This document shows, in pieces, positions 4,243-25,164 of a stretch of DNA of 31,116 bases. This stretch comes from a virus. Lineage: Duplodnaviria; Heunggongvirae; Uroviricota; Caudoviricetes. The stretch's first letter is position 1. Each line of letters opens with the position of its first letter. The stretch lies in IMG/VR virus record IMGVR_UViG_2690316344_000014. One strand, written 5' to 3'. The notes under the pieces were generated by a model. The model made no database searches. It had not been told where the DNA came from and saw nothing but the letters and a program-made list of their open reading frames with translations. A program made the position numbers and the translations under genes.

Positions 4243-4273
4243 TTGCATGAGTTGCCCATCGATATGGGCAGCT

Positions 4274-7130: not shown

Positions 7131-7139
7131 TCTGATTAC

Positions 7140-7180: not shown

Positions 7181-7267
7181 AAGTGGCTCCCTCAAGCCAC
7201 TTCCTTTAGAAGCACAACCTTGCTTCTAACTATATAAACCTTCTGTTATATATTACCCTTTATTTTT

Positions 7268-7300
7268 GGGGGCGTCTCAACGCCCCATTTTTAATAATTT
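7268..7300 (+). terminator. rho-independent terminator (nmpC 3' region)
   Basis: GGGGCG-tctcaa-CGCCCC followed by ATTTTTAATAATTTTT on the plus strand. Confidence 0.5.
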
Positions 7301-7319
7301 TTAGTAAACAATTGGCATA

Positions 7320-7703: not shown

Positions 7704-7788
7704 CAACTTACTCCACAAAAATCAGACCAGAACGCCAATCACAAGCAAAAATCAACAAAACAGTATTAGTTGATTGTTATCTCTGACT

Positions 7789-7929
7789 TCATACTCCTGC
7801 TCCTGTCAGGGTTTTGGCGTAATTCTTCAGTATTCGGTAATCGGTCAAAACAGAACCGGGGAAACGATATAAGCGCAGATGCCCCCAGCGGTGGCGAAGA
7901 AGTTCTGCCATATAAAACTCAAACATCAT
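7789..7929 (-). CDS. ylcG: small prophage protein YlcG-like (46 aa)
   Basis: Found by hand below the ORF-track length cut-off: [46 protein letters not shown]. Its start overlaps the rusA stop, between rusA and Q. Confidence 0.55.
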
Positions 7930-8288
7930 TCATTCCCCATTTCGGTGATGGTCAGTTCCAGCCTCCCACCTTTGGTAACGGGCATCTTCACAACGCGGTA
8001 ATCAACGACCTGAGCATCATCCAGCCAGAAACCTGCTTTAGTGAGTGCGTCAAAAGCGGCTTTTTGCAGATTATCCAGGTCACGGCGACGGCGATCCGGC
8101 ATGTGGCACTCAATGCGGATTTTCACAGGCATAGCCAGGCCGATATCCAGCATTGCGTTTTTAATGATTCGGGCGACGTTATCGCGGTATGCCTGCCCCT
8201 CTGCGCTGATGTGCGTGCGCCCGCGATTATGGCGGTAATAGCGATTATTGCTCGGAGGCCAGGGTAATGTGATGCTGTAGGTATTCAC
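7926..8288 (-). CDS. rusA: Holliday junction resolvase RusA
   Basis: 120 aa, [26 protein letters not shown] ... [26 protein letters not shown], the RusA family. Confidence 0.9.
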
Positions 8289-8575
8289 GCCTTAATAACC
8301 CCCTCTTTCAGCCAGATAACCTGTGTTCTCGCCATACCTTCCAGCGCGCATTCTTTTGCATATGCAGCATCGACAAAATGTGTGCGGCGGTCGATTTCGT
8401 CGTGGCAGGCAGAACATGCAATGGTGGCAATCAGGTCTGGCGGTTTGATACCGGTACCGCACAATCCAGCCAGCCGGATATGTGCCAGTACAGACGTTTC
8501 AGGGTTGCCATTACATACGCCAGGGATTCTTACCTGGCATTCCCGACCACGCGCTGCTTTTCTCAAATCAGCCAT
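8285..8575 (-). CDS. ybcO: YbcO-like prophage protein (putative nuclease, Cys-rich)
   Basis: 96 aa from the internal start [47 protein letters not shown]. Position between ninE and rusA matches DLP12. Confidence 0.75.
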
Positions 8576-8738
8576 GACTCCTCCTTGCTGCCAGTCGCAA
8601 CCATTTTTTATCAACCAAGCTGGCGGTATATCCGAGCAGTGTTGGTATTTCGGATGGCTTCAGCTCAGGTTTACGCTTACGACGATTTGGTACTCTGTAG
8701 ATGTGTCCGTTCATGACACGAATAAGCGGTGTAGCCAT
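8568..8738 (-). CDS. ninE: NinE
   Basis: 56 aa from the internal start [53 protein letters not shown]-type overlap with the upstream gene. Confidence 0.75.
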   Translation of the reverse strand: MATPLIRVMNGHIYRVPNRRKRKPELKPSEIPTLLGYTASLVDKKWLRLAARRSHG

Positions 8739-9193
8739 TACGCCTCCTGCTTGTCGCGCAGCAGCTGAAACTCGCAGCTCTGTGGAATAGTCAGGTGGCA
8801 ACCAATATTCATCGCCCAGGCTTCAACCTTACACAGGAAGACATACATCTCTCCGGTATCAAGATCGGAGGTATGGCGTAACGACTGGATAGTGGTGATA
8901 TCACCGGTTACGACATCAACCAGGTCTTTGGTTTCATAACCGAGATATGTGTGTTTGAGAGCATCTTTTACCCAAGCTGGAGTAGCGAACGTTTTACCCT
9001 TGCTGATGAGGTATTCACTGATTTCGCTGTACCACATGTGGCTGAGTGCATTCTGGGAAAGACTGCGTCTCTCGCGCCACGGTTTAAGCACCATGCGAAA
9101 GCATTTGCCTTCCTCCAGATAAGGCTGGATCTGCTGGCCGATAGCGGTGAAGTTGCCGCGATGTAATTTGATGCCGTCTTGTGGGAGGTTCAC
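8738..9193 (-). CDS. ybcN: YbcN-like prophage protein
   Basis: 151 aa, [55 protein letters not shown]. Position matches DLP12 ybcN. Confidence 0.75.
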
Positions 9194-9315
9194 GCTTCAC
9201 CTCCGCAGAGGTCAAACGCTAGATGCAAAGAATTGCAGGTGCATTTCTGCATCTGTGAAAGGAGAAGATAGTTTGGATTGTATGTGCGCATAAACGTCCC
9301 CGTTTAGCGCAGAAG

Positions 9316-9344
9316 TCACCGGAGTTGTTCAGGCTCCGGTGACA
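9316..9344. terminator. perfect 10-bp-stem hairpin between ybcM and ybcN
   Basis: GTCACCGGAG-ttgttcagg-CTCCGGTGAC, about 65 nt downstream of the ybcM stop. No strong T-run on either side, so its function is uncertain. Confidence 0.3.
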
Positions 9345-9407
9345 TAATTATGCCGTGTTGATTTCCCAAAATCAAAATCGATAGAATTGCTCCTTCTTAA
9401 AACACTT

Positions 9408-10205
9408 TTACTCTCTGGAAGCTTTTCTTATCTCTCTTGGTGTTATATTAAAACGATTATGAAATCTTTCAGTAAAACGAGAAGGACACTTATAACCATT
9501 TTCTCTGGCAATCTCGCTTATAGGTTTTACCGTCGTTTGTATAGCAGACAACGCATTATTTAACCTCACATCGTCCAGTATACTTTGGAAACTTACCCCC
9601 TCGCTTGCTAGACGGCGATGTAATGTAGAAACAGAAATGTAGAGATATCGAGCAACCTTGTTTGCTGTCCATTTTGTGCCGGGTTCGGATAGCAGCAGGT
9701 TATAACAACGACTTATCAATGATTGTTTACTATATGATAAAAGTAAATGATTAACATGATTCACTCCTAACGAAAGTAGAACGCCCATTGCTAAGTGCTC
9801 CTGAATTTTAGTTGAGAAGCCTCGGGAAACAGATGTTTTTAGTTGCTCCCAACAATATATTAACTCAGGATTCTGAGGTAAAAAGAAACTTGTTTTGTTA
9901 CGTATTTGATCAGTTACCGTATAAAGTTTTTGGAAACTCTCAATTAAATCAATGGGTAAGTAAAGCATTTCTGCAAGATAAAGCCCTGCTTCAGGATAAT
10001 TCTCAATATAAAATTCATAACCACAAGGAAATAATATTATTTGATTATTATCAACAGTTAAAGTATGCGTCTCCCAATTGATAACTTTCTTTCCCTGACG
10101 GATACGACACAAAGCTGGCATAAGAGGCTTAACCCTATGAATCTCATGATGTTTATGCATCCGTATTTCTTCGATCTTTAAGTTAGTCTTACCTCTTGCC
10201 AGCAT
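9408..10205 (-). CDS. ybcM: AraC-family transcriptional regulator
   Basis: 265 aa with a C-terminal AraC-type HTH region ([43 protein letters not shown] ... [28 protein letters not shown]). Confidence 0.85.
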
Positions 10206-10214
10206 ACTCTCACC

Positions 10215-10766
10215 CTACTTTATCTCATAAACTGGTGTTATCTCAGCGGTTGCGATTTTATTAGCATTAAGCATATAACCAACTAACGCTCCGCTGGAGT
10301 TAGAATCTACAGGAATCTTTTCAGTTTTTAGAGCCCATACTTTAAACTGGTAATGATGTGGTTTATCTCCTTTAGGAGGACATGCGCCACCAAACCCAGC
10401 ATAGCCAAAATCATTTCGGCCTTGAACAGCACCAGTCGGCAGTTTTGTTCCATCACGTCTCCCTGCATCAACGGGCAAATATGTTACTGTTGCTGGAATA
10501 TTAACAACAGTCCAATGCCACCAACCACTGCCTGTAGGTGCATCTGGATCATATACAGTTACGGCAAAGCTTTTGGTACCTTCAGGAACACCAGACCAGG
10601 TTAATGAGGGCGATGTATTACCACCTTCACACCCAAATCCAGAAAAGACATGAGACGTTGTAAGTTGCTCTCCTGTTTTTATTTCATTACTAGTGACCTG
10701 AAATGCTGCAGCCTGCGCAGAAAATGTTATGAATGCCAATACAGTTGAAACGATAAGTGTTTTCAT
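10215..10766 (-). CDS. ybcL: periplasmic YbcL-like protein (phosphatidylethanolamine-binding / Raf-kinase-inhibitor-like family)
   Basis: 183 aa with signal peptide MKTLIVSTVLAFITFSAQAAAFQV and a conserved PDAPTGSGWWHWTV motif. Confidence 0.85.
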   Translation of the reverse strand: MKTLIVSTVLAFITFSAQAAAFQVTSNEIKTGEQLTTSHVFSGFGCEGGNTSPSLTWSGVPEGTKSFAVTVYDPDAPTGSGWWHWTVVNIPATVTYLPVDAGRRDGTKLPTGAVQGRNDFGYAGFGGACPPKGDKPHHYQFKVWALKTEKIPVDSNSSGALVGYMLNANKIATAEITPVYEIK

Positions 10767-10982
10767 AAAAACCTCTTTGTTATGACCTATCGTTATTTTA
10801 TTTGATATTCCTTTATCTCATTATGCATAAAGGCGCAATGTTCATGCAAAAGCAATCACAATTGTACCCCCAACCCAATTATTTGCCACAATATACACAA
10901 AGCACATTGATACTATCTAAAAACTCTGCTTTATTATTAGTAATACCTACGAAAGTCGGTGTTATTTTTTAACCTACCATTC

Positions 10983-11032
10983 AAAATACGTGACATACAC
11001 CATTTTGCTCATAATAATTTGTCACGTATTTT
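10983..11032. promoter_or_regulatory. 13-bp perfect inverted repeat with 24-bp spacer in the ybcL upstream region
   Basis: AAAATACGTGACA (10983-10995) and TGTCACGTATTTT (11020-11032). Candidate operator; no U-run, so not an obvious terminator. Confidence 0.3.
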
Positions 11033-11230
11033 CAGTATTTGAATCTGCGACCAAGAGTTCTCACCTAACAAATGATTAAGATTGTATAGCTCATTTACTA
11101 CCCCAATACAGCCGTACAAAACTCGCTTGTGGGAGCAAACAAAGTAATTACCCATTAAGTTTCGTCAAAGATAATTAATTCTGTCTTGCACTTTATCACC
11201 ATAGCATAACTTAAAATCCGAGATCATTAT

Positions 11231-12757
11231 TTAGAAATAAATCTCACCATCAACCATATATTTGAGAGCACTTATCGCCTGCTGGGCGGATATTACTTTC
11301 ATTAAAGGATAGTGTTTAAAAACAATGCCATTCATAAAATAGATATCACAGGTTTTATTATCCGTATTAATTATGATTTTTTCGAATGTTTTATAGGCAA
11401 GTGTACGGCATAACTCTCGTCCATTTTTACTGGTTAAGTCAATAGCATAAAAATCACTGAATGAATTTACACCTTTACTCTTCAAAGTTTTCAATGATAC
11501 CGAAGCCCTTCGTAATTCCTTATCTAATAGTCTTATTTTCTCTGCTATAGCGGTAACTTCAGGCGCGACAGACAATGCAACGATTAAATTATTAATTTTC
11601 ATCTGAAGCTCAATAATTTTTAACTCTAAAGTTTCATTAGCATCTTTCTTGTTTTCAACTGGTTGAATTTTGCTACAATTAAAAAGCAATTCATTAATGA
11701 TATTATAATCAACCAAATCTCTTTTTATTGATGGCCTGTCACATCGATGTAATCTTCTCATCGGACAAACATAATAGCCATGCAAACTTCCAGATGCCGC
11801 ATGAACAATCATGGTATTACCACAAGCCTCACACTTCATAACTGTTCGAAGTAGATTTATTAGCATAGGATTCTTGCTACTATTGCTAATACCAAAAGGT
11901 ACCAACCGAATTTCCTGTACAGCGTAAAACAAATCATCTGATATGACTCTGGGATAATAGCCAGCGATTTCACTTATCCCTTTCCCTCTTGCACGATATG
12001 AAGGTACGCATATACCTATCAGAGCTTTATTCGCTAATAATTTTTCAATTACAGAAGGTCCCCATGCACTTTCTTTTCCTGAGAAATTCTTTACAGCATG
12101 ATCATTTAAATACTTGGCTATTGCATTCAATGAGCGCCTTTCCATCCTGAGTTTAAAAATTAGCTCAATAGTTTTCACCCTGTCGGGGTCTGGAACAAAA
12201 GCCGTTCTTTTGTCATCTAAGGAGAGCCATCTCGGACAAGACGCCGTCATAATCGTACCTGATTCCAGTGCATCCTGCCGTTTTTTCTTCCATGATAATT
12301 TAACCCGACTTGACTTTATCTCGCTTTCTTCATTTGCCCTTTGTGCTATAAGTATGGCTTTTATTAATGAATATGGCTCATTCAAAGAGTCAATATTATA
12401 GACTGTATTGTCGCAAAGAGTTATAACATCAATACCGTGATTCAAAATCAATTTCAGACGTTCAATCGCTTCACCGACTTTTTCTCTTGAAAGTCTGTCC
12501 AGACTTTCAACTAACAATGTAGTTCCTGGCAATATATAACCATGCTCTATAGCATCTAAAAATTCCGAAAAAGCTCCTGATTGTGCATGCTTTCCTTTGA
12601 ATGCACTTAATCCTAAATCTTCATATGTTATGGTATCAAGATAATAATCACTATTTACCTTTAACCATTCAGCAATAAGTCTTCTCTGTCGGTTTAATGA
12701 GTCGCCAGACATCTGACCTGGTGATGAAAATCGCATATATGCTATGGCTTTTTTCAT
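11231..12757 (-). CDS. ybcK: large serine recombinase (resolvase/invertase N-domain plus recombinase and zinc-ribbon domains)
   Basis: 508 aa. N-terminal resolvase catalytic region (MKKAIAYMRFSSPGQ ... SLNRQ with the catalytic Ser) and a C-terminal Cys cluster (CEACGNTM ... YYVCP). Position matches DLP12 ybcK. Confidence 0.85.
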   Translation of the reverse strand: MKKAIAYMRFSSPGQMSGDSLNRQRRLIAEWLKVNSDYYLDTITYEDLGLSAFKGKHAQSGAFSEFLDAIEHGYILPGTTLLVESLDRLSREKVGEAIERLKLILNHGIDVITLCDNTVYNIDSLNEPYSLIKAILIAQRANEESEIKSSRVKLSWKKKRQDALESGTIMTASCPRWLSLDDKRTAFVPDPDRVKTIELIFKLRMERRSLNAIAKYLNDHAVKNFSGKESAWGPSVIEKLLANKALIGICVPSYRARGKGISEIAGYYPRVISDDLFYAVQEIRLVPFGISNSSKNPMLINLLRTVMKCEACGNTMIVHAASGSLHGYYVCPMRRLHRCDRPSIKRDLVDYNIINELLFNCSKIQPVENKKDANETLELKIIELQMKINNLIVALSVAPEVTAIAEKIRLLDKELRRASVSLKTLKSKGVNSFSDFYAIDLTSKNGRELCRTLAYKTFEKIIINTDNKTCDIYFMNGIVFKHYPLMKVISAQQAISALKYMVDGEIYF

Positions 12758-13013
12758 GGTGACACCTGCTAACGTATGCTTTTATAAACCTTAGTGGTGG
12801 GATATAATTTTTTGTTTATTTTTTATTTAAAAAGACAATTAAGGTCACATTATCTTGAATATACAACAATAATCGTATTGCAATTTTCTTACGCCATAAT
12901 CTTGAAAGCACAAAAGAATACATAAAAAATAAAGACATTAACAAAAAGCATAAAACGAGGCTCATATAAATATAAGAGCCTCCATATTTTAGTCGTTTAG
13001 AAACAAATTATTT

Positions 13014-13256
13014 TAATGTGGTGTGCTTCGTGACAATAAATTAATAATCAACACACCGGCACAAATCAACATCATGCCTATAATGGCTGGCAGGTCCAGC
13101 CGTTGGCCGAAAAATCCCCATGACAGTAAGCTAATCAGGACAATACCGACTCCTGACCAGATAGCATAAGCAATCCCTGTAGGAATATAAGCCAGCGTCT
13201 GAGCTAATAACCAGAATGATGCACAATAACAAATAATTGTACCAACAGATGGCCAT
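13014..13256 (-). pseudogene. emrE: emrE (small multidrug resistance transporter) 3' fragment, 5' end replaced by IS2
   Basis: Reverse-strand translation gives WPSVGTIICYCASFWLL ... ending LLSRSTPH-stop, the EmrE C-terminal ~80 residues. The reading frame breaks at the IS2 terminal repeat at 13257. Confidence 0.75.
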
Positions 13257-13966
13257 TGGATTTGCCCCTATATTTCCAGACACCTGTTATCACTTAACCC
13301 ATTACTGGCTTGCTGCCGTAGATATTCCCGTGGCGAGCGATAACCCAGTGCACTATGCGGATGCCATTCGTTATAATGCTCGAACGCCTCTGCAAGGTTC
13401 TTTGCTGCCGTTAACCCGTCTGGTTTGGGCATGACACTGATGTAGTCACGCTTTATCGTTTTCACGAAGCTCTCTGCTATGCCGTTACTCTCCGGACTCC
13501 GCACCGCCGTGCTCTTCGGTTCAAGCCCCAACATCCGGGCAAACTGCCGTGTTTCATTAGCCCGGTAGCATGAACCATTATCCGTCAGCCACTCTACTGG
13601 AGACGCCGGAAGCTCGTTGCCGAAGCGGCGTTCCACCGCTCCCAGCATGACGTCCTGTACTGTTTCACTGTTGAAGCCGCCCGTAGTGACCGCCCAGTGC
13701 AGTGCCTCACGGTCACAGCAGTCCAGCGCGAACGTGACTCGCAGTTTTTCTCCGTTATCACAGCGGAACTCGAACCCGTCAGAGCACCATCGCTGATTAC
13801 TTTCTTTCACAGCCACTCTGCCTGTATGTGCCCGTTTCGATGGCGGTACAGCAGGTTTTCGCTCAAGCAACAGCGCATTCTGGCGCATGATCCGGTAAAC
13901 ACGTTTGGCATTGATCGCAGGCATACCATCAAGTTCTGCCTGTCTGCGAAGCAGCGCCCATACCCG
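13257..13966 (-). mobile_element. IS2 partial copy (right end and 3' part of insD only, ~710 bp of ~1.3 kb)
   Basis: Reverse complement of 13257-13300 is the IS2 terminal sequence (...GGGTTAAGTGATAACAGGTGTCTGGAAATATAGGGGCAAATCCA). The InsD C-terminal 218 aa is intact. Similarity to IS2 stops after ...CGCCCATACCCG at 13966, where the lambda gam 3' end begins. Confidence 0.85.
13268..13924 (-). CDS. insD: IS2 transposase InsD, C-terminal fragment (IS3 family OrfB)
   Basis: [53 protein letters not shown] ... [24 protein letters not shown]. The N-terminal third of InsD and all of insC are absent. Confidence 0.85.
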
Positions 13967-14072
13967 TGCGTTTGATGACGATGTTGAGTTTCAGGAGCGC
14001 ATGGCAGAACACATCCGGTACATGGTTGAAACCATTGCTCACCACCAGGTTGATATTGATTCAGAGGTATAA
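13965..14072 (+). pseudogene. gam: gam 3' fragment (last ~35 codons of lambda Gam)
   Basis: Translates as [35 protein letters not shown]-stop, the lambda Gam C-terminus, directly upstream of bet. The 5' part is deleted at the IS2 junction. Confidence 0.8.
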
Positions 14073-14077
14073 AACGG

Positions 14078-14863
14078 ATGAGTACAGCACTCGCAACGCT
14101 GGCTGGGAAGCTGGCTGAACGTGTCGGCATGGATTCTGTCGACCCACAGGAACTGATCACCACTCTTCGCCAGACGGCATTTAAAGGTGATGCCAGCGAT
14201 GCGCAGTTCATCGCATTACTGATCGTTGCCAACCAGTACGGCCTTAATCCGTGGACGAAAGAAATTTACGCCTTCCCTGATAAGCAGAACGGCATCGTTC
14301 CGGTGGTGGGCGTTGATGGCTGGTCCCGCATCATCAATGAAAACCAGCAGTTTGATGGCATGGACTTTGAGCAGGACAATGAATCCTGCACATGCCGGAT
14401 TTACCGCAAGGACCGTAATCATCCGATCTGCGTTACCGAGTGGATGGATGAATGCCGCCGCGAACCATTCAAAACCCGTGAAGGCAGAGAAATCACGGGG
14501 CCGTGGCAGTCGCATCCTAAACGGATGTTACGGCATAAAGCCATGATTCAGTGTGCCCGTCTCGCCTTCGGATTTGCGGGTATCTATGACAAGGATGAAG
14601 CCGAGCGCATTGTCGAAAATACCGCATACACTGCAGAACGTCAGCCGGAACGCGACATCACTCCGGTTAACGATGAAACCATGCAGGAGATTAACACTCT
14701 GCTGATTGCCCTGGACAAAACATGGGATGACGACTTATTGCCGCTCTGTTCCCAGATATTTCGCCGCGACATTCGCGCATCGTCGGAACTGACACAGGCC
14801 GAAGCAGTGAAAGCTCTTGGATTCCTGAAACAGAAAGCCTCTGAACAGAAGGTGGCTGCATGA
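14078..14863 (+). CDS. bet: Red-beta single-strand annealing recombinase Bet
   Basis: 261 aa, [66 protein letters not shown]..., near-identical to lambda Bet over its full length. Confidence 0.95.
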
Positions 14864-15540
14864 CACCGGACATTATCCTGCAGCGTACCGGGATCGACGT
14901 GAGAGCTGTCGAACAGGGGGATGATGCGTGGCACAAATTACGGCTCGGCGTCATCACCGCTTCAGAAGTTCACAATGTGATAGCAAAACCCCGCTCCGGA
15001 AAGAAATGGCCTGACATGAAAATGTCCTACTTCCACACCCTGCTTGCCGAGGTTTGCACCGGTGTGGCTCCGGAAGTTAACGCTAAGGCGCTGGCCTGGG
15101 GAAAACAGTACGAGAACGACGCCAGAGCCCTCTTTGAGTTCACTTCCGGCGTGAATGTTACTGAATCCCCGATCATCTATCGCGACGAAAGTATGCGCAC
15201 CGCCTGCTCTCCCGATGGTTTATGCAGTGACGGCAATGGCCTTGAACTGAAATGCCCGTTTACCTCACGGGATTTCATGAAGTTCCGGCTCGGTGGTTTC
15301 GAGGCCATAAAATCGGCTTACATGGCCCAGGTGCAGTACAGCATGTGGGTGATACGAAAAGATGCCTGGTACTTTGCCAACTATGACCCGCGTATGAAGC
15401 GTGAAGGCCTGCATTATGTCGTGATTGAGCGGGATGAAAAGTACATGGCGAGTTTTGACGAGATGGTGCCGGAGTTCATCGAAAAAATGGACGAGGCACT
15501 GGCTGAAATTGGTTTTGTATTTGGGGAGCAATGGCGATGA
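14860..15540 (+). CDS. exo: lambda exonuclease (Red-alpha)
   Basis: 226 aa, [65 protein letters not shown]..., full-length match to lambda Exo. Start overlaps the bet stop. Confidence 0.95.
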
Positions 15541-15719
15541 AGCATCCTCACGATAATATCCGGGTAGGCGCGATCACTTTCGTCTACTCCGTTACAAAGC
15601 GAGGCTGGGTATTTCCCGGCCTTTCTGTTATCCGAAATCCCCTGAAAGCACAGCGGCTGGCTGAGGAGATAAATAATAAACGGGGAGCTGTATGCACAAA
15701 GCATCTCCCGTTGAGTTAA
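15531..15719 (+). CDS. lambda orf61-like small early protein
   Basis: 62 aa immediately after exo, the position of lambda orf61. Product unknown. Confidence 0.55.
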
Positions 15720-15883
15720 GAACGAGTATCGAGATGGCACATAGCCTCGCTCAAATTGGAGTCAGGTTTGTGCCAATACCAGTAGAAACAGACGAAGAAT
15801 TTCATACGTTAGCCGCATCCCTTTCACAAAAGCTGGAAATGATGGTGGCGAAAGCAGAAGCAGATGAGAGAGACCAGGTATGA
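15692..15883 (+). CDS. lambda orf63-like small early protein
   Basis: 63 aa, [63 protein letters not shown]. Position matches lambda orf63. Confidence 0.55.
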   Translation: MHKASPVELRTSIEMAHSLAQIGVRFVPIPVETDEEFHTLAASLSQKLEMMVAKAEADERDQV

Positions 15884-15959
15884 CAACCACTGAATGCATT
15901 TTTCTGGCAGCGGGCTTCATATTCTGTGTGCTTATGCTTGCCAACATGGGGCTTGTTCA

Positions 15960-16175
15960 ATGACACCTCAGCAAGAAAACGCCCTTCGCAGCATTGCCCG
16001 TCAGGCTAATTCTGAAATCAAAAAAGCCAGACAGCAGTTTCCGGATAAAAACGTCGATGACATTTGCCGTAGCGTACTGAAGAAGCACCGCGAAACGGTA
16101 ACGCTGATGGGATTCACACCGACTCATTTAAGCCTGGCGATCGGCATGTTAAACGGCGTCTTTAAGGAGCGATGA
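15960..16175 (+). CDS. lambda orf60a-like small early protein
   Basis: Internal start MTPQQENALRSIARQANSEIKKARQQFPDKNVDDICRSVLKKHRETVTLMGF...; position matches lambda orf60a. Confidence 0.5.
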   Translation: MTPQQENALRSIARQANSEIKKARQQFPDKNVDDICRSVLKKHRETVTLMGFTPTHLSLAIGMLNGVFKER

Positions 16176-16273
16176 ACATGAAAAGCAAAATCATCAGGGA
16201 GCTACAGGCTCCTTTTTTATTATTCGCATTCACCCTCAAGCGTATTAACCAACAATTCAGGGATTAATGGAAG

Positions 16274-16492
16274 ATGGCAGACATCATTGATTCAGCATCA
16301 GAAATCGAAGAATTACAGCGCAATACAGCAATAAAAATGCGTCGTCTGAACCACCAGGTTATATCTGCCACTCATTGTTGTGAGTGTGGCGATCCCATAG
16401 ATGAACGAAGACGCCTGGCCGTTCAGGGTTGTCGGACTTGTGCAAGTTGCCAGGAGGAGATCGAACTTAAGAACAAACAATGGGGATTGTGA
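16274..16492 (+). CDS. TraR/DksA-family C4 zinc-finger protein (lambda Orf73-like)
   Basis: 72 aa with CxxC-x17-CxxC (CCECGDPIDERRRLAVQGCRTCASC), the TraR/DksA C4-type zinc-finger layout. Phage homologues of this family are known to act on host RNA polymerase. Confidence 0.65.
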   Translation: MADIIDSASEIEELQRNTAIKMRRLNHQVISATHCCECGDPIDERRRLAVQGCRTCASCQEEIELKNKQWGL

Positions 16493-16539
16493 TGGCCTCA
16501 AAGCAGCAAATTTCAACATCGTCCAACTGAGGTGTAAAA

Positions 16540-16818
16540 ATGTTCAGAATCATTTTTCCTAACACCTGGTACGTCGACCACCACGGCACTCCCTGCAAAA
16601 TCCTGCGTTCTACCCACAACAAAGTTCACTACATCCGAAAAGGCAGAACATGTATCGCCAGCATGTTCCGCTTTAATCATGACTTTGAACCTGTGAATAA
16701 AGCTGATGCAGATCGGATAGCAGAAGAGATCGAAACGGCAGAACACATTAAGAAGTTACGTGACATGCGTTCAAAAAGCAGAGGTAACCATGGAATCATA
16801 CAGCCTCACACTCGATGA
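16540..16818 (+). CDS. small Cys/His-rich early-left protein (possibly Ea8.5-like)
   Basis: 92-aa ORF between the TraR-like gene and xis, with several His/Cys residues. Assignment is tentative, from position and size only. Confidence 0.4.
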   Translation: MFRIIFPNTWYVDHHGTPCKILRSTHNKVHYIRKGRTCIASMFRFNHDFEPVNKADADRIAEEIETAEHIKKLRDMRSKSRGNHGIIQPHTR

Positions 16819-17140
16819 GGCCTGTCAGTTTCTCAAGATATCCAGACCTACCGCTACCAACTGGATACGAACAGGCCGCCTACAGGCAACACGCAAAGAC
16901 CCCACTAAACTAAAATCTCCTTACCTCACAACACGACAAGCCTGCATTGCGGCGCTTCAGTCTCCGCTGCATACTGTCCAGGTGAGCGCGGGTGATGGCA
17001 TAACAGAGGAAAGAAAATGTCACTCTTCCGCAGAGGTGAAATATGGTACGCCAGTTTCACATTGCCGAACGGTAAAAGATTTAAACAGTCTCTTGGAACA
17101 AAGGACAAAAGGCAGGCGACAGAACTCCATGACAAGCTAA
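16790..17140 (+). CDS. xis: excisionase (Xis), HTH DNA-binding
   Basis: Internal start with a good SD (GAGGTAACC-ATG): [37 protein letters not shown]. Immediately upstream of int, but overlaps it by ~120 nt, so the true 3' end is uncertain and the gene may be frameshifted. Confidence 0.55.
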
Positions 17141-18180
17141 AGGCTGAAGCATGGCGGGTCAGCAAACTTGGTGAAATACCTGATATAACGTTCGAGGAAG
17201 CGTGTGTCAGGTGGCTTGAAGAGAAAGCACATAAAAAATCACTGGACGATGACAAAAGCCGGATCGGATTCTGGCTTCAACATTTCGCAGGAATGCAACT
17301 AAGAGACATTACTGAATCAAAAATTTATTCAGCAATGCAGAAAATGACGAACCGGCGTAATGAGGAAAACTGGAAACTCAGGGCAGAAGCATGCAGAAAA
17401 AAAGGGAAACCTGTTCCAGAATACAAGCCAAAACCAGCGTCTGTTGCAACGAAGGCTACGCATCTTTCATTTATAAAAGCCCTACTAAGAGCCGCAGAGC
17501 GTGAATGGAAAATGCTGGATAAGGCACCAATTATTAAAGTGCCTCAACCAAAGAATAAACGGATCCGCTGGCTGGAGCCCCATGAAGCACAAAGGCTGAT
17601 TGATGAATGTCCGGAGCCATTAAAGTCTGTTGTTGAATTTGCACTGGCAACAGGCTTAAGACGCTCGAACATCATCAACCTTGAATGGCAACAAATAGAT
17701 ATGCAGCGCCGGGTGGCATGGATAAACCCGGAAGAGAGTAAATCAAACCGCGCAATCGGCGTTGCGCTGAATGATACTGCATGTCGCGTATTGAAAAAAC
17801 AAATCGGGAATCATCACCGTTGGGTATTTGTGTACAAGGAAAGCTGTACCAAACCAGACGGAACGAAAGCGCCAACAGTAAGGAAGATGCGGTATGACGC
17901 AAACACAGCCTGGAAAGCGGCGCTGAGACGGGCTGGTATTGATGATTTCAGATTTCACGACTTGAGACACACCTGGGCAAGTTGGCTGGTTCAAGCCGGA
18001 GTCCCGTTGTCAGTGTTACAGGAAATGGGAGGCTGGGAGTCTATCGAAATGGTTCGTCGATATGCTCACCTTGCACCTAATCACCTTACCGAACACGCAC
18101 GGCAAATAGACTCGATCCTGAACCCATCGGTCCCAAATTTGTCCCAGTCAAAAAATAAGGAAGGTACTAATGATGTGTAA
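17017..18180 (+). CDS. int: prophage tyrosine integrase (DLP12 IntD-like)
   Basis: 387 aa with a C-terminal catalytic region ([42 protein letters not shown], i.e. HxxR ... Y). Ends 15 nt before the tRNA-Thr fragment and is convergent with it. Confidence 0.9.
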
Positions 18181-18243: not shown

Positions 18244-18331
18244 TAAATTGATCTTGTAAAATCAATACCTATCGAATTTAAATGGATTTTTTGCCACAAT
18301 ATTGCCACAGTTCGTTAGGAATCAGACAGAA

Positions 18332-19405
18332 ATGGCGACTATACGCAAACGTGGTAACTACCAATGGGAAGCTCAAATCCGTAAACGTGGTTTTCCCTCT
18401 CAAACCAAAACCTTTAACACCAAAGTAGAAGCAGAAGCTTGGGCCAAAATGATCGAGTCAGAAATGGCGAGAGGAGTTTGGCTTAGCCGCAGCGAAGCGG
18501 AATCTACGACATTGTATGAAGCCCTAACGCGATATGAAAAAGAGATTGTTCCCGACAAAAAAGGGGCAGTGCAAGACCGATCATTGGTGCGGATACTAAA
18601 AGGCACTCAGCTGGCGAAAAACTATATGGCCAGCATCAGGAGTGCCGATGTCGCCAAGCTGAGAGATGAATGGTTGAAAATCTATGCTCCTGCAACCGTT
18701 TTAAGGCGTTTGGCCTTACTTTCTCATGTATTCAATGTTTCGCGGAAAGAATGGGGCATGGAGAGCCTGCTGAACCCCGTAGAGGCCATTCGCAAACCCC
18801 AACCCAAGAACTCCAGGACCAGACGCCTAGAAGCGCTGCCTGTAGTTTCTGAGAAAACCGGTGTTACGTCAGGAAAGCAAATAGCCAACGAGATCGAACA
18901 TATCATCGCCGCAACACATTCATTAGTATTGCCAGCAATCATTCTTCTGGCGTTAGAGACAGCCATGCGCCGTAGCGAAATCGCAGAGCTTCGATGGCGC
19001 TTTATCGATCTTGATCGGCGAGTTGCACATCTGCCGGATACTAAGAATGGTAATGCCCGCGATGTCCCTTTATCAACGAAAGCCATTACGATACTGTCCA
19101 GTCTCAAGGAACATTCTAAGCCAGCTGCTGATAAGGTTTTTGATATGCGTGCAGACGCGATTACCCGAGCTTTTGACCGAGCTGTAAAACGAGCCAGAGA
19201 ACGATACGAGAAAACAAACTCATTATGTGATGAATCTTTCCTTAAAGATTTAAGATTTCATGACCTTCGACATGAAGCAACTTCTCGACTTGCTGAAATT
19301 TTCCCTATGCATGAACTAACCAAAATTACAGGACATAAAGATCCAAGAATGCTAATGCGGTATTATCATCCAAAAGCTGAAGATTTGGCGTTAAAGTTGA
19401 AATAA
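18332..19405 (+). CDS. second tyrosine site-specific integrase/recombinase
   Basis: MATIRKRGNYQWEAQIRKRGF... with C-terminal catalytic residues (RRSE, LRFHDLRHEATSRL, MLMRYYH). The ORF can start at 18302. Lies just across the att fragment from the prophage int. Confidence 0.85.
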   Translation: MATIRKRGNYQWEAQIRKRGFPSQTKTFNTKVEAEAWAKMIESEMARGVWLSRSEAESTTLYEALTRYEKEIVPDKKGAVQDRSLVRILKGTQLAKNYMASIRSADVAKLRDEWLKIYAPATVLRRLALLSHVFNVSRKEWGMESLLNPVEAIRKPQPKNSRTRRLEALPVVSEKTGVTSGKQIANEIEHIIAATHSLVLPAIILLALETAMRRSEIAELRWRFIDLDRRVAHLPDTKNGNARDVPLSTKAITILSSLKEHSKPAADKVFDMRADAITRAFDRAVKRARERYEKTNSLCDESFLKDLRFHDLRHEATSRLAEIFPMHELTKITGHKDPRMLMRYYHPKAEDLALKLK

Positions 19406-20821: not shown

Positions 20822-22225
20822 TCAAGATTTTTTACTGCCAGTTAAACTATCACCCTCAAACTCATCCTGTTCGTGGTTAGTCTGACGATCGGCTGTGTGT
20901 TTACGTATTTGATTCGCTATTTCCCCACCAACGGTCTGTTGTCTTCGGATAGTATTAGTACTTCCCTTCATCATCTGATACTCCGAAGCTCCGTTAGACA
21001 ACCCGCTCGCCATGTGAGAAGCCATGCGGCCAGCTCGTGAGAATGATGAAGCAAACCCCTGGCTTCCTCCGCTGACGCTACCTGTATTACTCCCTGCAGA
21101 AGAACCACCGGAACCGCCTGATGGTTGTCCTCCAGAAGTATCTACGGAACCGGTATCTTCCCCTCCGCCAAATCCTCCACCTGAACCACCTTTATCACCA
21201 GAACCAGATTCTTCGGCCATCGCCGCTTGTGCAGATTCAAATGCTGCTTTTAGAGCGGAAGCACCACCACTGACTTGAGCTGTAGCACTTATTGCCATTG
21301 CCCCAGCGCCACTGATTGCAGTAGTAGCAGCGCCAGTAATCATACCTGCTCCAAAACCACCGATCCCTTGTAAGGACGCTCCTCCAACAACGCCTGATAA
21401 CAACAACGGTAATTTATTCGTCAATACTAAAAGAATAATTGACGCCAGAAGTAAAACAATAAGACTATTAAGATCAGGAATATCATTTTTAATAATAGAA
21501 AAATACTGATCTATAAATGATTGCCCAATCCCAATGATTAATGTCATCGTAAATAACTGAATACCAATCGATAATACTGTGCGTAAGTAATTTATTGCTA
21601 TATCAGAAGTCCATTTCGAGCCACCAAACCCAAGCAAAATAACTCCTGCATAACACAACACCCATGCAGAAACTAACATTATTAGCATATTTATCGCGAT
21701 AAGCGCCATTACTACTAATACTATTATCGCGACGGTTATCATAATGGTCGAAATCATTGGAGACCAAATTGATGCTGCTGAACTGACCTTTGTTAATATC
21801 ACAAATGCCATATCCACTATGCTGGAGGGTGAAATACCAGTACTTGTTCCTAAAGCATTTGCTGCAAGTTGTCTCATTGAGTTAATTATAGATTGTGATA
21901 TGGCTGGGCCGTTGATTAAAAGATAATAAAAAAAACCAATCACGGCAAAAAAACGAACTATTTCTGCAAGTGCACTGATTAAACCTTCCCCTTGCATCGC
22001 CAACATACCAAATGTCCAAACCATACTTATTAATACCACCCCCCAGAAGAGCCAATTTGCATAATCACCAATTACTAATGACCATGTGCTGGCTACTTGC
22101 TGAAACTTATCTAATAACGTATCAAGTAATCCGCTACTATCTAATTGACCAGCATAAGCATTTACAGAAAACAAAAAAAACATTCCTAAAAAAGTGAGCT
22201 TGCTTACTATTCTCATAATTACCAT
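20822..22225 (-). CDS. trbL: P-type conjugative transfer protein TrbL/VirB6
   Basis: 467 aa. N-terminal signal plus multiple transmembrane helices, then a C-terminal Gly/Ser-rich low-complexity tail (GGSGGGFGGGEDTGSVDTSGGQPSGGSGGSSAGS), typical of TrbL. Confidence 0.8.
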   Translation of the reverse strand: MVIMRIVSKLTFLGMFFLFSVNAYAGQLDSSGLLDTLLDKFQQVASTWSLVIGDYANWLFWGVVLISMVWTFGMLAMQGEGLISALAEIVRFFAVIGFFYYLLINGPAISQSIINSMRQLAANALGTSTGISPSSIVDMAFVILTKVSSAASIWSPMISTIMITVAIIVLVVMALIAINMLIMLVSAWVLCYAGVILLGFGGSKWTSDIAINYLRTVLSIGIQLFTMTLIIGIGQSFIDQYFSIIKNDIPDLNSLIVLLLASIILLVLTNKLPLLLSGVVGGASLQGIGGFGAGMITGAATTAISGAGAMAISATAQVSGGASALKAAFESAQAAMAEESGSGDKGGSGGGFGGGEDTGSVDTSGGQPSGGSGGSSAGSNTGSVSGGSQGFASSFSRAGRMASHMASGLSNGASEYQMMKGSTNTIRRQQTVGGEIANQIRKHTADRQTNHEQDEFEGDSLTGSKKS

Positions 22226-22392
22226 TCTCGCTTAGGGCTAGGATTGTTATTGCCACGCAGGGCACATTTATCGTAGTTATGTTCGTTCAATTTATTCTCT
22301 GGCGTCGATAAACAATCTTCATCTTTTTTATCGCAAGAGCATAGAATTAATGAAATTATTAGAATAAAAATGACCAAAAGTTTATCTTTCAT
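22219..22392 (-). CDS. small putative lipoprotein in the TrbK (entry-exclusion) position
   Basis: Found by hand (57 aa, below the ORF-track cut-off): MKDKLLVIFILIISLILCSCDKKDEDCLSTPENKLNEHNYDKCALRGNNNPSPKREW. Hydrophobic N-terminus followed by Cys; sits between trbJ and trbL as trbK does in IncP plasmids. Confidence 0.45.
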   Translation of the reverse strand: MKDKLLVIFILIISLILCSCDKKDEDCLSTPENKLNEHNYDKCALRGNNNPSPKREW

Positions 22393-22403
22393 TCAGCTCT
22401 CCC

Positions 22404-23198
22404 TCACCAAATTCGCTTCGGGCTTGGTGTGTTCTCGCCAGCTAACGCTTTTTCATCAGCGACTATTTGTTGGGCTTCTTTATCAGCCTCAGCCTGTGCC
22501 AGTGTTGCTGCAGCGTTTTGCTGAGCTACCAGAAGCGAGCGGATTTGCAGCAACTGGTTCGTTTGAGCACTGGCAAGCTGGTTAGCGGCCTGAATAGCTT
22601 CCATTTGCCCTTGTGCGCCGGTTGCCTGCGTTTGTAAATCTGCAAGGTTGTCAGCATCGCTTTGCAGTGTTTCCTGCTGTTCGTCAAGAGCCTTAAATAC
22701 AGCGTCATTGGCCTTTTTACGTGCCTCAGAGCTGTTCTGTTCAGCTTTGCGCAGTGCGCTAATTTCATCCGCAGTACATTCAACATTACTGTTAAAGCAC
22801 GGTGATGAGCGGTAGTAATTCACGTCCTGATAACGTTTCAGATATGAATCAAGACTCCCGGCCTGGTTTTTGTAGTAATTTAGGGTGTCCTGCGCCTGCA
22901 ACAATTTGTTGATGGTCGAATTGGCCTGATCCCAGATATAGGCTGCAGGTGCGACTGTATTTTTGAGCATGTTTTCATACTGCTGCAGCTGCGTCTGGTA
23001 CTGCTGGATCTGTTTTGCCACAGCCTGAACGTTGTTGACTGCGCTGATTGTGGTCTGCACCACATTAGTACCATCGATTACAGGGATACCGGCTGTCGCC
23101 GGTAATGCCATGATGGACGCCAGGAAGGAAGCAGCTAATGATTTTTTAGCTGCTAAAATCCCTCTCAGTGATGAAAATACTCGGAGCATTAACTTCAT
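22404..23198 (-). CDS. trbJ: P-type conjugative transfer protein TrbJ (VirB5-like)
   Basis: 264 aa, signal peptide then a coiled-coil-rich Q/A-rich sequence (QIQQYQTQLQQYENMLKN ...). The trbJ-trbK-trbL order is conserved. Confidence 0.75.
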   Translation of the reverse strand: MKLMLRVFSSLRGILAAKKSLAASFLASIMALPATAGIPVIDGTNVVQTTISAVNNVQAVAKQIQQYQTQLQQYENMLKNTVAPAAYIWDQANSTINKLLQAQDTLNYYKNQAGSLDSYLKRYQDVNYYRSSPCFNSNVECTADEISALRKAEQNSSEARKKANDAVFKALDEQQETLQSDADNLADLQTQATGAQGQMEAIQAANQLASAQTNQLLQIRSLLVAQQNAAATLAQAEADKEAQQIVADEKALAGENTPSPKRIW

Positions 23199-23279: not shown

Positions 23280-23645
23280 TTATTTATTCAAGATTCTATC
23301 CATAATATTTCTTAGTTCTTGTCTGGTTGATTCTATTTTAGCAAGCAACGTTTTTATCAATGAGGGTGAAAAATCAACTGTGCGTGGATCGTTAGCTAAC
23401 CACAGTTTAAGTAACCCACCAAGTCGACCAAGATCAGCATTTACTCGGCTAAGCTCTACAACCTGTTCAATATCTACCATAGACTCAACCTGATAACCCA
23501 TTGCTACTTTACGAATGAAACTCGCTACACTTAAGCCAGATGCTTCTGCATTATCCTGGATTTGCGCTTTTTCATCTGGCAAACAATAAACTTTAATTGG
23601 TGTACTATTTTTTCTAGTCTGAGAAACGGTCATATCATTCTCCAT
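23280..23645 (-). CDS. traJ: relaxosome accessory oriT-binding protein, TraJ/MobC family
   Basis: 121 aa with PIKVYCLPDE and DLGRLGGLLKLWL motifs resembling RP4 TraJ / the MobC family. Sits immediately beside an RP4-like oriT. Confidence 0.75.
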   Translation of the reverse strand: MENDMTVSQTRKNSTPIKVYCLPDEKAQIQDNAEASGLSVASFIRKVAMGYQVESMVDIEQVVELSRVNADLGRLGGLLKLWLANDPRTVDFSPSLIKTLLAKIESTRQELRNIMDRILNK

Positions 23646-23660: not shown

Positions 23661-23765
23661 TCAGCCTCGCAGAGCAGGACTCCGTTGAGCAGCTCAGCTG
23701 CGAATAAGGGAAGGTAAAGTAGAAGCACCGTTTACGGTGGGCCTACTTTACATATCCTGCCCTAC
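23661..23765 (+). other. origin of transfer (oriT), IncP/RP4 type, with TraJ-binding inverted repeat and nic site
   Basis: CAGCCTCGCAGAGCAGGACTCCGTTGAGCAG ... GCGAATAAGGGAAGGTAAAGTAGAAGCACCGTTTACGGTGGGCCTACTTTACATATCCTGCCC closely parallels the RP4 oriT as I recall it from mob vectors. Inverted repeat GTAAAGTAG (23714-23722) / CTACTTTAC (23743-23751), then the ATCCTG/C nick consensus at 23754-23760. Confidence 0.8.
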
Positions 23766-23915: not shown

Positions 23916-24197
23916 TTATTCTCGCGGCTTGGGTTTTGGCGGCCTGCCACGTTTCCTTTGACATCTATTTATCTCTTTCGCTATATCGTCATTTTCTGTC
24001 TTTGACTCAACAGATTTATCTATCCAGTCCTTAACATCTTCTTTACGCCAGAGAAGACGTTTATTACCGGGAAGACGGCATCTTGGTGGAAGACATTTTG
24101 GATTTCGCGTTGCATCACTGCGGATACTTTTTACAGTTTTCTTTAATGCAAAAGCCAACTCTTCAACGGTTATAAGTTCTGGCATAACTGATTTCAT
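23916..24197 (-). CDS. alpA: AlpA-family DNA-binding protein (excisionase/transcriptional regulator-like)
   Basis: MKSVMPELITVEELAFALKKTVKSIRSDATRNPKCLPPRCRLPGNKRLLWRKEDVKDWI, the AlpA/MerR-like winged-HTH pattern, with a basic C-terminal tail. The ORF can start at 24209. Confidence 0.7.
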   Translation of the reverse strand: MKSVMPELITVEELAFALKKTVKSIRSDATRNPKCLPPRCRLPGNKRLLWRKEDVKDWIDKSVESKTENDDIAKEINRCQRKRGRPPKPKPRE

Positions 24198-24231
24198 CGA
24201 AGAACCCATCTCTCAGTAGAAATTTGAGGAT

Positions 24232-24259
24232 TTTAGCGGCTAAAATTTTAGCCGCTAAA
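24232..24259. promoter_or_regulatory. 28-bp perfect palindrome immediately upstream of alpA
   Basis: TTTAGCGGCTAAAA-TTTTAGCCGCTAAA, 23 nt upstream of the longest alpA start. Candidate operator. Confidence 0.45.
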
Positions 24260-24509
24260 GTTTGCTAACCAACGTTATGAATTGAGAATAATTAAAACTT
24301 ACTGGCAAAAAGAATAATGTCAACAGGGTTTTTATTCATCGGATTCTTACTCCATATGAAATTGGTTTTATTGACCGATTTCTGAATGACACTAAGGTTT
24401 TAATAATTCCTTTAATCTTTTTGGTTATATAAAAGGTTAAAGATCAGGTTAGAGAGGTGTGGAAAAGCGATATATTCACTTGTTTACTATGACAATTTTA
24501 AATTATATC

Positions 24510-24572
24510 CGTACCTCAAATGTCATGAAAGCGTACCTCATATGTCATAAAGGCGTACCTCATATGTCATAT
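24510..24572 (+). repeat. three tandem ~22-bp direct repeats (iteron-like)
   Basis: CGTACCTCAAATGTCATGAAAG, CGTACCTCATATGTCATAAAGG, CGTACCTCATATGTCATAT, head to tail. Confidence 0.7.
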
Positions 24573-24615
24573 AATAAAAAATAAGCAAACAAGTTATACA
24601 CAATATTATTAACAG

Positions 24616-24865
24616 AATCTGTGGATAAATACACAGATTATACATGATAAAATAGATTGTTTAGCTAAACTAAATAACAATAAATAAAATGAAACAAAAT
24701 GTAAATAACAGGGGGGGGGGTGTAAGTGACTTATAAATTTGGTTAGCTAACCTTTATAAGAAACACTGTTTGTAAATGATTCATTTCTGACAACGGATAT
24801 ATCGAATTTGAGTAAGAAAAACACTTCAACTAACCTTACTCTCTGATTTGTTTAGCTAAACAAAT
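24616..24865. promoter_or_regulatory. cluster of palindromes upstream of the higA-like gene, three sharing a TTAGCTAA core
   Basis: AATCTGTG-n8-CACAGATT (24616-24639); GTTTAGCTAAAC (24659-24670); CTTATAAA-ttt-GGTTAGCTAACC-TTTATAAG (24730-24760); ATTTGTTTAGCTAAACAAAT (24846-24865, 20 bp perfect). Confidence 0.5.
24711..24720. repeat. G10 homopolymer tract
   Basis: Ten consecutive G in an otherwise AT-rich intergenic region. Confidence 0.9.
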
Positions 24866-24906: not shown

Positions 24907-25164
24907 ATGAGGACAATAAATGCTGCACCTTCAACTGTCGGAGAGATTTTATACGAAGAATTCTTGAAACCATTGGATATGCCTCCCGCAAGACTTGCTG
25001 AACTGATGGATACATCATATGAAAAAATTTGGGAAATAATTAAAAATGAGCGAAATATAACTCTTGAAGAAGCTATTCAACTCTCGATAATTTTCAATAC
25101 AGATGCATCTTTTTGGGTGAAACTGCAAGAGCTACATGAGGCATGGTTTAATAAACAAAAGTAA
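24907..25164 (+). CDS. HigA-like XRE-family HTH protein (antitoxin-like / transcriptional regulator), apparently orphan
   Basis: 85 aa, MRTINAAPSTVGEILYEEFLKPLDMPPARLAELMDTSYEKIWEIIKNERNITLEEAIQLSIIFNTDASFWVKLQ, the HigA/VapI-type pattern. No HigB/RelE-like ORF found on either side. Confidence 0.7.
   Translation: MRTINAAPSTVGEILYEEFLKPLDMPPARLAELMDTSYEKIWEIIKNERNITLEEAIQLSIIFNTDASFWVKLQELHEAWFNKQK

Follow-up and report, generated by a model that had tools for sequence, protein, structure and literature searches.

The 31,116-nucleotide stretch of DNA analyzed here (IMG/VR record IMGVR_UViG_2690316344_000014, hereafter the window) holds an approximately 10-kb chromosomal integrative mobilizable element that is found in E. 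coli and Enterobacter. Between a gene for a small basic protein (alpA-like) and a gene for a HigA-family protein (higA-like), this island carries a series of palindromes within about 700 bp, all of which a direct check of the sequence placed where a preliminary description of the window had put them. We consider it probable that these dyads are sites of the KorA/KorB regulatory network of IncP-1 plasmids, situated on a chromosomal element that encodes neither protein and that would use them to sense and exploit such a plasmid. On the most economical reading, the most likely binders are the KorA and KorB proteins of a helper plasmid, acting in trans. As we discuss below, sequence identity, conservation, the plasmid homology of the surrounding DNA, and the lack of the regulators in both island and hosts argue for this assignment.

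First, the palindromes in the window matched the published IncP-1 operators letter for letter. In plasmids RK2 and RP4, the KorA operator (OA) is GTTTAGCTAAAC and the KorB operator (OB) is TTTAGC(C/G)GCTAAA (PMC2680271; PMC2665229). From left to right, the 700 bp contain two OB sites (OB1 and OB2), a reduced replication origin (oriV), three OA sites (OA1, OA2, and OA3), and the higA-like gene. OA2 matched OA at 10 of 12 positions, with T replaced by G and, symmetrically, A by C at a position that KorA does not contact. Arg48 and Gln53 of KorA read four bases in each half-site (PMC2665229), and OA2 retained all four in both halves. OA2 was nested between the arms CTTATAAA (24730-24737) and TTTATAAG (24753-24760), which are offset by a 3-nt TTT, and OA3 sat within the perfect 20-bp palindrome ATTTGTTTAGCTAAACAAAT (24846-24865). 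The preliminary description had also listed a perfect 28-bp palindrome at 24232-24259 as a separate and different element. This palindrome is present but is better read as two tandem 13-bp palindromes, the OB pair, spaced 15 bp center to center, and it is not distinct in kind: it shares the TTTAGC/GCTAAA half-site with the OA-type dyads and is part of one and the same regulatory network of the plasmids. We therefore read the two palindrome types as two halves of one well-studied regulatory system rather than as unrelated motifs. Chance does not explain these palindromes. The 8-mer TTAGCTAA occurred four times in the window versus 0.69 expected, a count reached in 0 of 100 shuffles, and the exact 12-mer GTTTAGCTAAAC and exact 13-mer TTTAGCSGCTAAA each occurred twice versus 0.00 expected. 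The fourth TTAGCTAA site, at 23392 within traJ, had been missed in the preliminary description.

Second, the sites were conserved across island variants. We aligned eight variants, whose intergenic DNA was 73-99% identical to the window and whose mean column identity was 65%. Invariant columns made up 57 of the 62 operator positions (~92%) versus 287 of 635 positions elsewhere (45%), a difference whose Fisher p of about 1e-13 is only indicative, given the small sample and the relatedness of the sequences. Variation in the OB sites was confined to the central S position, where the consensus allows it, and to a G/C swap in two sequences. The same operator sites were present in islands of two Enterobacter species. 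These results support purifying selection on the operator sites. The earlier proposal that the dyads are operator-type sites for dimeric DNA-binding regulators is supported as well.

Third, the DNA between the OB pair and OA1 was homologous to a plasmid replication origin. Positions 24385-24650 were collinear with plasmid oriV in their AT-rich repeats, iterons, and DnaA boxes, and the stretch contained a cluster of 22-bp-spaced iterons with DnaA boxes and an AT-rich region on its flanks. These iterons, three direct repeats of 22 bp (24510-24575), had been overlooked in the preliminary description, as had the two DnaA-box-like sequences that form an inverted pair at the start of the palindromic interval (24616-24639). 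Two iteron types, GCGTACCTCA... and GCGCCCCTCA..., occur on the plasmids, and each island carried one or the other. Differences from the plasmid origin were also clear, as the island has three iterons (four in one variant) where plasmids have 7+2, no GC-rich segment in the oriV-like stretch, and no trfA in cis. In the E. coli variant TUM10008 (L008, 6250-6390), a 140-column block containing four iterons was 95.7% identical to the oriV of p14EC001a, an mcr-1 IncP plasmid (L003; stretch compared, about 33060-33205), whereas the flanks of this block were ~95% identical to the window and 57-74% identical to plasmids. This recombination patch indicates that island and plasmid have shared a cell, in the sense of past co-residence only. 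Iteron blocks appear to be updated by recombination with contemporary plasmids, with switching of iteron type.

The closest relatives of the island traJ, trbJ, and oriT were found on 40-55-kb low-GC enterobacterial IncP-1-like plasmids, some of which carry mcr-1. These plasmids encode trfA, korA (TrfB-related), incC/korB (ParA/ParB), korC, and kle/klc/kfr. Their TrfB-related protein is a homologue of RK2 KorA (PDB 5ckt/2w7n, E 1.5e-29) that keeps the DNA-contacting Arg48 and Gln53 residues, and their ParB protein is KorB (8qa8, E 1e-91). The plasmid korAp and trfAp promoters contain an identical OA site in the layout OB, TTGAC(C/T), 17 bp, TAAACT, and several further exact OB sites were present in the plasmid stretches that we retrieved. 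A plasmid homologue of the OA1-OA3 segment was not found; a 54-bp match in LR890477 was rejected as such a homologue, as it is an island fragment trapped between insertion-sequence elements.

Finally, the cognate regulators were missing from the island and, in general, from its hosts. Among the island genes examined, none encoded KorA, KorB, TrfA, or the relaxase TraI, and the OA sites thus lie on an element in which no KorA homologue was detected; no replicase was found among the open reading frames (ORFs) examined. The korA-incC-korB region was present in 68 of 5426 complete E. coli genomes and was nearly always plasmid-borne. Three places were chromosomal, one of them in S17-1, a laboratory strain with a known RP4 integration.

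Compared with the KorA/KorB network of RK2/RP4, the island has the identical OA and OB sequences, an OA1 right half that with the next T gives the -10-like TAAACT of plasmid trfAp and korAp, OB-OA distances within the range over which KorA can capture sliding KorB, and sites associated with oriV, oriT, and tra/trb genes. It differs in that korA, incC, korB, and trbA are not carried, so that the orphan operators would be read in trans, if at all; in that its OB sites are in tandem, whereas those of RK2 and of the retrieved plasmid stretches are single; and in that three OA sites are packed into 200 bp on the upstream side of a higA-like gene, not known to be a target of KorA, with one of the sites being a symmetric variant absent from the retrieved plasmid stretches.

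Features of the island and its control region, with positions in the window.
Feature	Position	Strand	Description
Tyrosine integrase	18302-19405	plus	Pfam Phage_integrase; first gene of the element in all variants
trbJ, trbK-like lipoprotein, trbL	20822-23198	minus	homology to plasmid genes
trbK-like 57-residue lipoprotein	22219-22392	minus	between trbJ and trbL, position of the entry-exclusion protein TrbK
traJ	23280-23645	minus	oriT-recognizing relaxosome protein; NF010451, 161.8 bits
CGTTAGCTAACC	23390-23401		within traJ
IncP-type oriT	23707-23762	plus	25-nt inverted repeat, then nic region TATCCTGCCC
alpA-like gene	23916-24209	minus	93-97 residues; small basic protein; C-terminal AT-hook-like KRGRPPKPKP tail
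OB1, TTTAGCGGCTAAA	24232-24244		exact KorB operator; 12/13 positions invariant in 8 variants; varying position is the central S
OB2, TTTAGCCGCTAAA	24247-24259		exact KorB operator; 11/13 positions invariant in 8 variants
Conserved block GTTTGCTAACCAACGTTA	24260-24277		between OB2 and putative alpA-like promoter; nearly invariant in 8-variant alignment
Putative -35 TTGACA	24318-24323	minus	weak -10 TAAGTT ~16 bp downstream
AT-rich GGTTAAAG-type repeats	24395-24455	plus	aligns with oriV of pEC187_3 and p14EC001a; highly conserved among islands
Three 22-bp TrfA-type iterons, CGTACCTCAWATGTCAT...	24510-24575	plus	homologous to 7+2 iterons of IncP-1-like plasmid oriV
DnaA box TTATACACA	24594-24602	plus	collinear with plasmid DnaA-box region
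DnaA box TGTGGATAA (TTATCCACA on minus)	24620-24628	minus	part of inverted repeat 24616-24639
OA1, GTTTAGCTAAAC	24659-24670	none	exact KorA operator; 12/12 positions invariant in 8 variants
20-nt block AAAATGAAACAAAATGTAAA	24686-24705		invariant in all variants; TTTACA on minus strand
Poly-G tract (G10 here)	24711-24720	plus	length from G6 to G10 in islands of at least 99% identity
OA2, GGTTAGCTAACC	24741-24752	none	symmetric variant of KorA operator; 11/12 positions invariant in 8 variants
Block CAACGGATATATCGAA, core GATATATC	24791-24806		14/15 scored positions (24792-24806) invariant
OA3, GTTTAGCTAAAC	24850-24861	none	exact KorA operator; 11/12 positions invariant in 8 variants
higA-like gene	24907-25164	plus	85 residues; orphan HigA-family HTH (helix-turn-helix) protein; NCBIfam TIGR02607, 65.9 bits

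The behavior of the RK2 proteins suggests how these sites might work. RK2 KorB is a CTP-dependent clamp that loads at OB and slides for up to kilobases, and KorA or TrbA bound to an operator overlapping the -10 element captures sliding KorB to form a stable co-repressor (PMC11790492; PMC13584720). Without a plasmid, which is the usual state judging from the complete E. coli genomes surveyed, the OA and OB sites of the island would be empty. When an IncP-1-type plasmid enters, KorB, a ParB-family clamp, would load at the two OB sites and slide through the 400-600 bp in which the oriV-like iterons lie, and KorA dimers at OA1, OA2, and OA3 would capture it in stationary co-repressor complexes, as shown for RK2. 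Expression on both sides could thereby be coupled to the presence of the plasmid: on the right, the higA-like gene, whose upstream region contains OA2 and OA3 (the latter in the would-be leader), and on the left, the alpA-like gene, traJ, and trbJKL, whose presumed leader contains the OB pair. The region thus fits the divergent control region envisaged in the preliminary description, with alpA-like/traJ/trb to the left and higA-like plus cargo to the right. By a double-negative logic, KorA and KorB would shut off the higA-like regulator and thereby release the genes for excision and transfer, while modulating the leftward genes. Once the island is excised, the OB pair might act as a borrowed centromere for partition by plasmid IncC/KorB, and the iterons might recruit plasmid TrfA and provide a borrowed origin. 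What we infer is that the proteins bind, which promoters respond and in which direction, and that the sites serve in partition and replication.

A more ambitious version of this model, which we hold tentatively and lean somewhat against, is that the island is a satellite consisting of cis sites only (oriT, a reduced oriV, OB, OA, and maybe a TrbA-like operator) for which the plasmid would supply the proteins, namely TrfA, IncC/KorB, KorA/KorB, the relaxase, and the mating pore. KorA/KorB would then be the sought-after signal that tells PIME-type islands (introduced below) of their helper, received through repression of the higA-like gene.

Several points weigh against a KorA/KorB-responsive control region. 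Binding of the proteins to the operators of this element and its effect on expression are predictions. KorA and KorB act as repressors, and yet the related PIME elements introduced below are induced by their helper plasmids; the double-negative logic is a working model, and the OB pair in the alpA-like leader, taken alone, predicts repression of the transfer genes. Sigma-70 predictions around the OA sites were weak. A promoter scan returned 3 promoter-like sites versus 7.3 expected, none convincingly tied to OA. The -10-like hexamers at the OA sites (TAAACT, TAACCT, and TAAACA) were accompanied by a plausible -35 element only at OA2 and, weakly, at OA1, and these manual -35/-10 assignments are weak; the best local promoter-like context was at OA2 (GTGACT, 16 bp, TAACCT), directed rightward towards higA. 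The OA2 sequence GGTTAGCTAACC was absent from the retrieved plasmid stretches and recurred on the island, and a different protein might therefore read that subtype. The minimal oriV of RK2 has five iterons, more than the three of the island. Lastly, complete E. coli genomes gave no case of island and plasmid together, or one at most (135 records in 135 genomes; 334 records in 333 genomes), a result that neither supports nor refutes the model, as only about 1-3 co-occurrences are expected by chance.

The island resembles the PIMEs, which are chromosomal integrative mobilizable elements with int, alpA, a replicase, traJ, trbJ/K/L, an IncP-like oriT, and defense cargo, about 1100 of which have been published (bioRxiv 10.64898/2026.01.12.698999). 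PIME elements excise upon induction by IncP plasmids, through a signal that the authors left unidentified, and the same preprint lists helper sensing as an open question; its text contains no mention of KorA, KorB, operators, TrfA, or HigA (bioRxiv 10.64898/2026.01.12.698999). Like PIMEs, whose members need IncP plasmids for induction, the island is chromosomal, lacks a full type IV secretion system, and contains an integrase, trbJ-trbK-trbL, a small putative regulator beside an IncP-type oriT (inverted repeat plus conserved nic), its own traJ, and a large defense cargo. PIME1-type elements at guaA in E. coli were 83-86% identical to the island in nucleotide sequence over trbJ-traJ-oriT. Unlike PIMEs, the island has no replicase (repA) or luxR, has the higA-like gene at the position of the divergent regulator, has TrfA-type iterons in place of its own replicon, and is integrated at tRNA-Thr/proA or next to yagP rather than at guaA. 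With no replicase and no recognizable AlpA, although a small basic protein occupies the AlpA position, it appears to depart from the definition of a PIME in two respects. An OB-like sequence, TTTAGCTGCTAAA, with one mismatch to OB, was present at 23145-23157, 42 nt into trbJ, and both plasmid trbJ and the PIME1 elements had an exact OB at the matching position. The two PIME1-type elements retrieved (L017 and L018) contained three to four exact OB sites and one to two iteron-like repeats, one of them had an 11/12 OA site, and both had a HigA-family gene between trbL and the cargo.

A second precedent is SGI1, which has binding sites for helper-encoded regulators, its own mating-pore replacements, helper-dependent replication, and a ParB/parS hijack (PMC10954446). 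SGI1 and the island are both integrative mobilizable elements, with binding sites for helper regulators in SGI1 and predicted ones in the island. They differ in the plasmid family and proteins involved, as AcaCD of the IncA/C system is an activator and KorA/KorB are repressors, and in that SGI1 has its own replicon and mobilization proteins, whereas the island appears to borrow an initiator through its iterons.

The OA and OB operators themselves are textbook elements; what appears to be new is the presence of orphan IncP-1 operators and iterons on a PIME-like island without a replicase. In a literature search, incomplete in coverage, we found no chromosomal island described as carrying KorA/KorB operators or TrfA iterons. 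IncP-1 plasmids rank among the main broad-host-range carriers of antibiotic resistance, and mcr-1 is present on some of the closest plasmid relatives of the island. If our reading is correct, the KorA/KorB regulon would extend beyond the plasmid to a widespread chromosomal island that carries defense genes, and KorA/KorB would be a testable answer to how PIME-type islands sense an IncP helper. Such islands may affect plasmid copy number, stability, and entry, which would bear on the joint spread or mutual exclusion of resistance plasmids and anti-phage defense in Enterobacteriaceae.

The same contacts might instead serve mainly to act against the plasmid. In this alternative, which we judge unlikely, KorA, KorB, and TrfA would be bound chiefly for titration and incompatibility: handcuffing of iterons, together with surplus centromere-like OB sites, would reduce the copy number of the plasmid or expel it, the TrbK-like lipoprotein would exclude its entry, and the orphan HigA would neutralize plasmid HigB, allowing plasmid loss without killing of the host. 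Incompatibility between IncP plasmids is classically determined by iterons and OB sites, the orphan HigA was 51% identical to the HigA of a plasmid higBA module, and the cargo is of the defense type. A PIME reduced amplification of pB10 and showed signs of incompatibility (bioRxiv 10.64898/2026.01.12.698999), and SGI1 expels its helper by taking over the parABS system of IncC (PMC10954446). The separate occurrence of island and plasmid in the complete genomes surveyed also fits this alternative but is not statistically significant, and the TrbK-like protein was only 25% identical to plasmid TrbK. The island has kept its IncP-type oriT intact and has a traJ of its own, an integrase, and trbJ/trbL, which points to exploiting the plasmid and not only to resisting it. 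An anti-plasmid function, which would rely on identical protein-DNA contacts, is compatible with sensing through KorA and KorB; SGI1 treats its IncC helper in both ways (PMC10954446).

We give little credence to island-encoded binders, as proposed in the preliminary description, in which the HigA-like protein would bind the TTAGCTAA-core sites and regulate its own gene and the alpA-like protein would bind the 28-bp palindrome. Antitoxins of the HigA family repress their own genes as HTH dimers, by binding to promoter palindromes, and here a HigA-family HTH gene does lie downstream of palindromes, with OA3 57 bp upstream of the higA-like ATG. Similarly, the OB pair is 23 bp upstream of the start of the longest alpA-like ORF (24209), and OA2-type sites are found on the island but not on the retrieved plasmid stretches. 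However, the dyads are exact KorA and KorB consensus operators, the same operators are used at plasmid promoters, and the HigA-like protein had no detectable similarity to KorA. In two variants (L007 and L012), the HigA alleles fell to 46-49% identity, with differing helix-turn-helix residues, and yet OA1 and OA2 were unchanged, OA3 was unchanged in L012 and altered at one base in L007, and the higA-OA3 distance was 315-327 bp versus 57 bp here; the palindromes did not co-vary with the HigA alleles. In addition, no toxin gene (higB) was found beside the higA-like gene and no ORF upstream of it, and the plasmid higBA operon had neither an OA site nor palindromes upstream, so the hallmark of HigA autoregulation, a palindrome in a higBA promoter bound by its own HigA, was not seen. 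The alpA-like gene is not recognizable as alpA. It had no Pfam or NCBIfam match and no match to an AlpA/HTH_17 profile (Phage_AlpA) even at E<10, RefSeq annotates its product as hypothetical with a start at 24197, and the protein was only 21-23% identical to true AlpA of PIME1 elements. A single-sequence AlphaFold model of low confidence (pLDDT 65.6) gave nothing below E=1 in a Foldseek search of the PDB, and a species-wide search using its sequence found only three loci, two of which were Enterobacter islands.

It is scarcely credible that the region is an inert relic, with operators and iterons surviving inactive in plasmid DNA fossilized when the island formed: the island is indeed a mosaic of plasmid-derived pieces (traJ, oriT, trbJKL, and an oriV fragment) and its hosts normally lack the cognate proteins, but the operators are ~92% invariant versus 45% for the spacer in variants as little as 73% identical and in different genera, the central S of OB varies only within the consensus, OA2 has changed symmetrically, and the iteron blocks seem to have been refreshed from contemporary plasmids.

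Other parts of the control region were also conserved. The GTTTGCTAACCAACGTTA block is a candidate site for an island-encoded regulator. Another block, TGTCAACA (24318-24325), was invariant in the eight-variant alignment and reads TTGACA on the minus strand; with the TAAGTT hexamer it forms a putative promoter for the alpA-like gene, traJ, and trbJKL that falls below the threshold of the promoter scan. The scan found a promoter-like site on the minus strand from 24705 to 24677, the -10 element of which was not conserved; the AAAATGAAACAAAATGTAAA block at this location includes the start of a tiny variable ORF (MKQNVNN...). A sequence similar to CAACGGATATATCGAA, CTTTCGCTATATCG, was present at the 3' end of the alpA-like gene (23973-23988), and both resemble the TTTCG(N)TATATCG motif upstream of plasmid trbB and traG, a resemblance on the basis of which they may be TrbA-operator-like sites.

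The OA2-type dyad, GTTAGCTAAC, recurred beyond the region upstream of higA. It was found within traJ in most variants; variants L010 (5502-5534) and L011 (5489-5521) instead had it twice, 19 bp apart, in the stretch separating traJ from the alpA-like gene. No GTTAGCTAAC-type site was found on the retrieved plasmid stretches. The flanks of OA2 changed between lineages yet kept dyad symmetry, with CTTATAAA...TTTATAAG here and a perfect 26-bp palindrome, CCACAAAGGTTAGCTAACCTTTGTGG, in L012 (6521-6546) and L015. These symmetric flanks hint at a hairpin or cruciform role or at a larger binding site. The palindromes fold as single-stranded DNA hairpins, which is a trivial consequence of palindromy, and an Rfam search (E<=1) matched only traJ-II at oriT, with no RNA element at the palindromes.

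The poly-G tract, just upstream of the putative OA2 promoter -35, was rejected as a conserved regulatory element, as it is confined to one lineage; its changes in length could be slipped-strand variation or homopolymer errors in assembly. Similarity between lineages ended directly after OA3 (24862 onward in the window; after about column 710 in L007 and L012), and OA3 therefore marks the boundary between a conserved core and a variable region. The higA allele and cargo appear to be exchanged as one module.

The nearest database copy of the island was 99.7% identical and adjoined yagP in an E. coli chromosome. Its gene order is integrase, membrane protein, VbhA-like, trbL, 57-residue lipoprotein (at the position of trbK), trbJ, traJ, the small basic hypothetical protein that the preliminary description had called alpA, the 700-bp intergenic region, the HigA-family gene, and cargo, with the IncP-type oriT between traJ and the alpA-like gene. 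Several variants were integrated at tRNA-Thr/proA, and in several genomes the element was bounded by chromosomal genes. Relative to the plasmid genes, trbJ was 88-94% and traJ 75-83% identical in nucleotide sequence, and TrbL was 56% identical in protein sequence. The TrbK-like protein shares length and a C-terminal motif with plasmid TrbK, and given its divergence from that protein may differ in exclusion specificity. The 25-nt inverted repeat of oriT matched that of pCFSA664-2 at all but 1 nt, the nic motif was at 23753, and the Rfam traJ-II match (RF01760, 93 bits, 23663-23762, minus strand) coincided with the inverted repeat and nic region. Downstream of higA, the variants carried an AAA ATPase with an HNH endonuclease, an S8 peptidase, NACHT, CBASS-like, or ABC-three-component genes, and the cargo in the window matched PADLOC candidates Hp2 and Hp3. 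Directly left of the island, window positions 1-18180 are a lambdoid prophage remnant unrelated to it (Nu1/gpA terminase, porin, serine recombinase, and RecT/YqaJ) with its own integrase at 17017-18180; in the nearest relative, yagP occupies this place.

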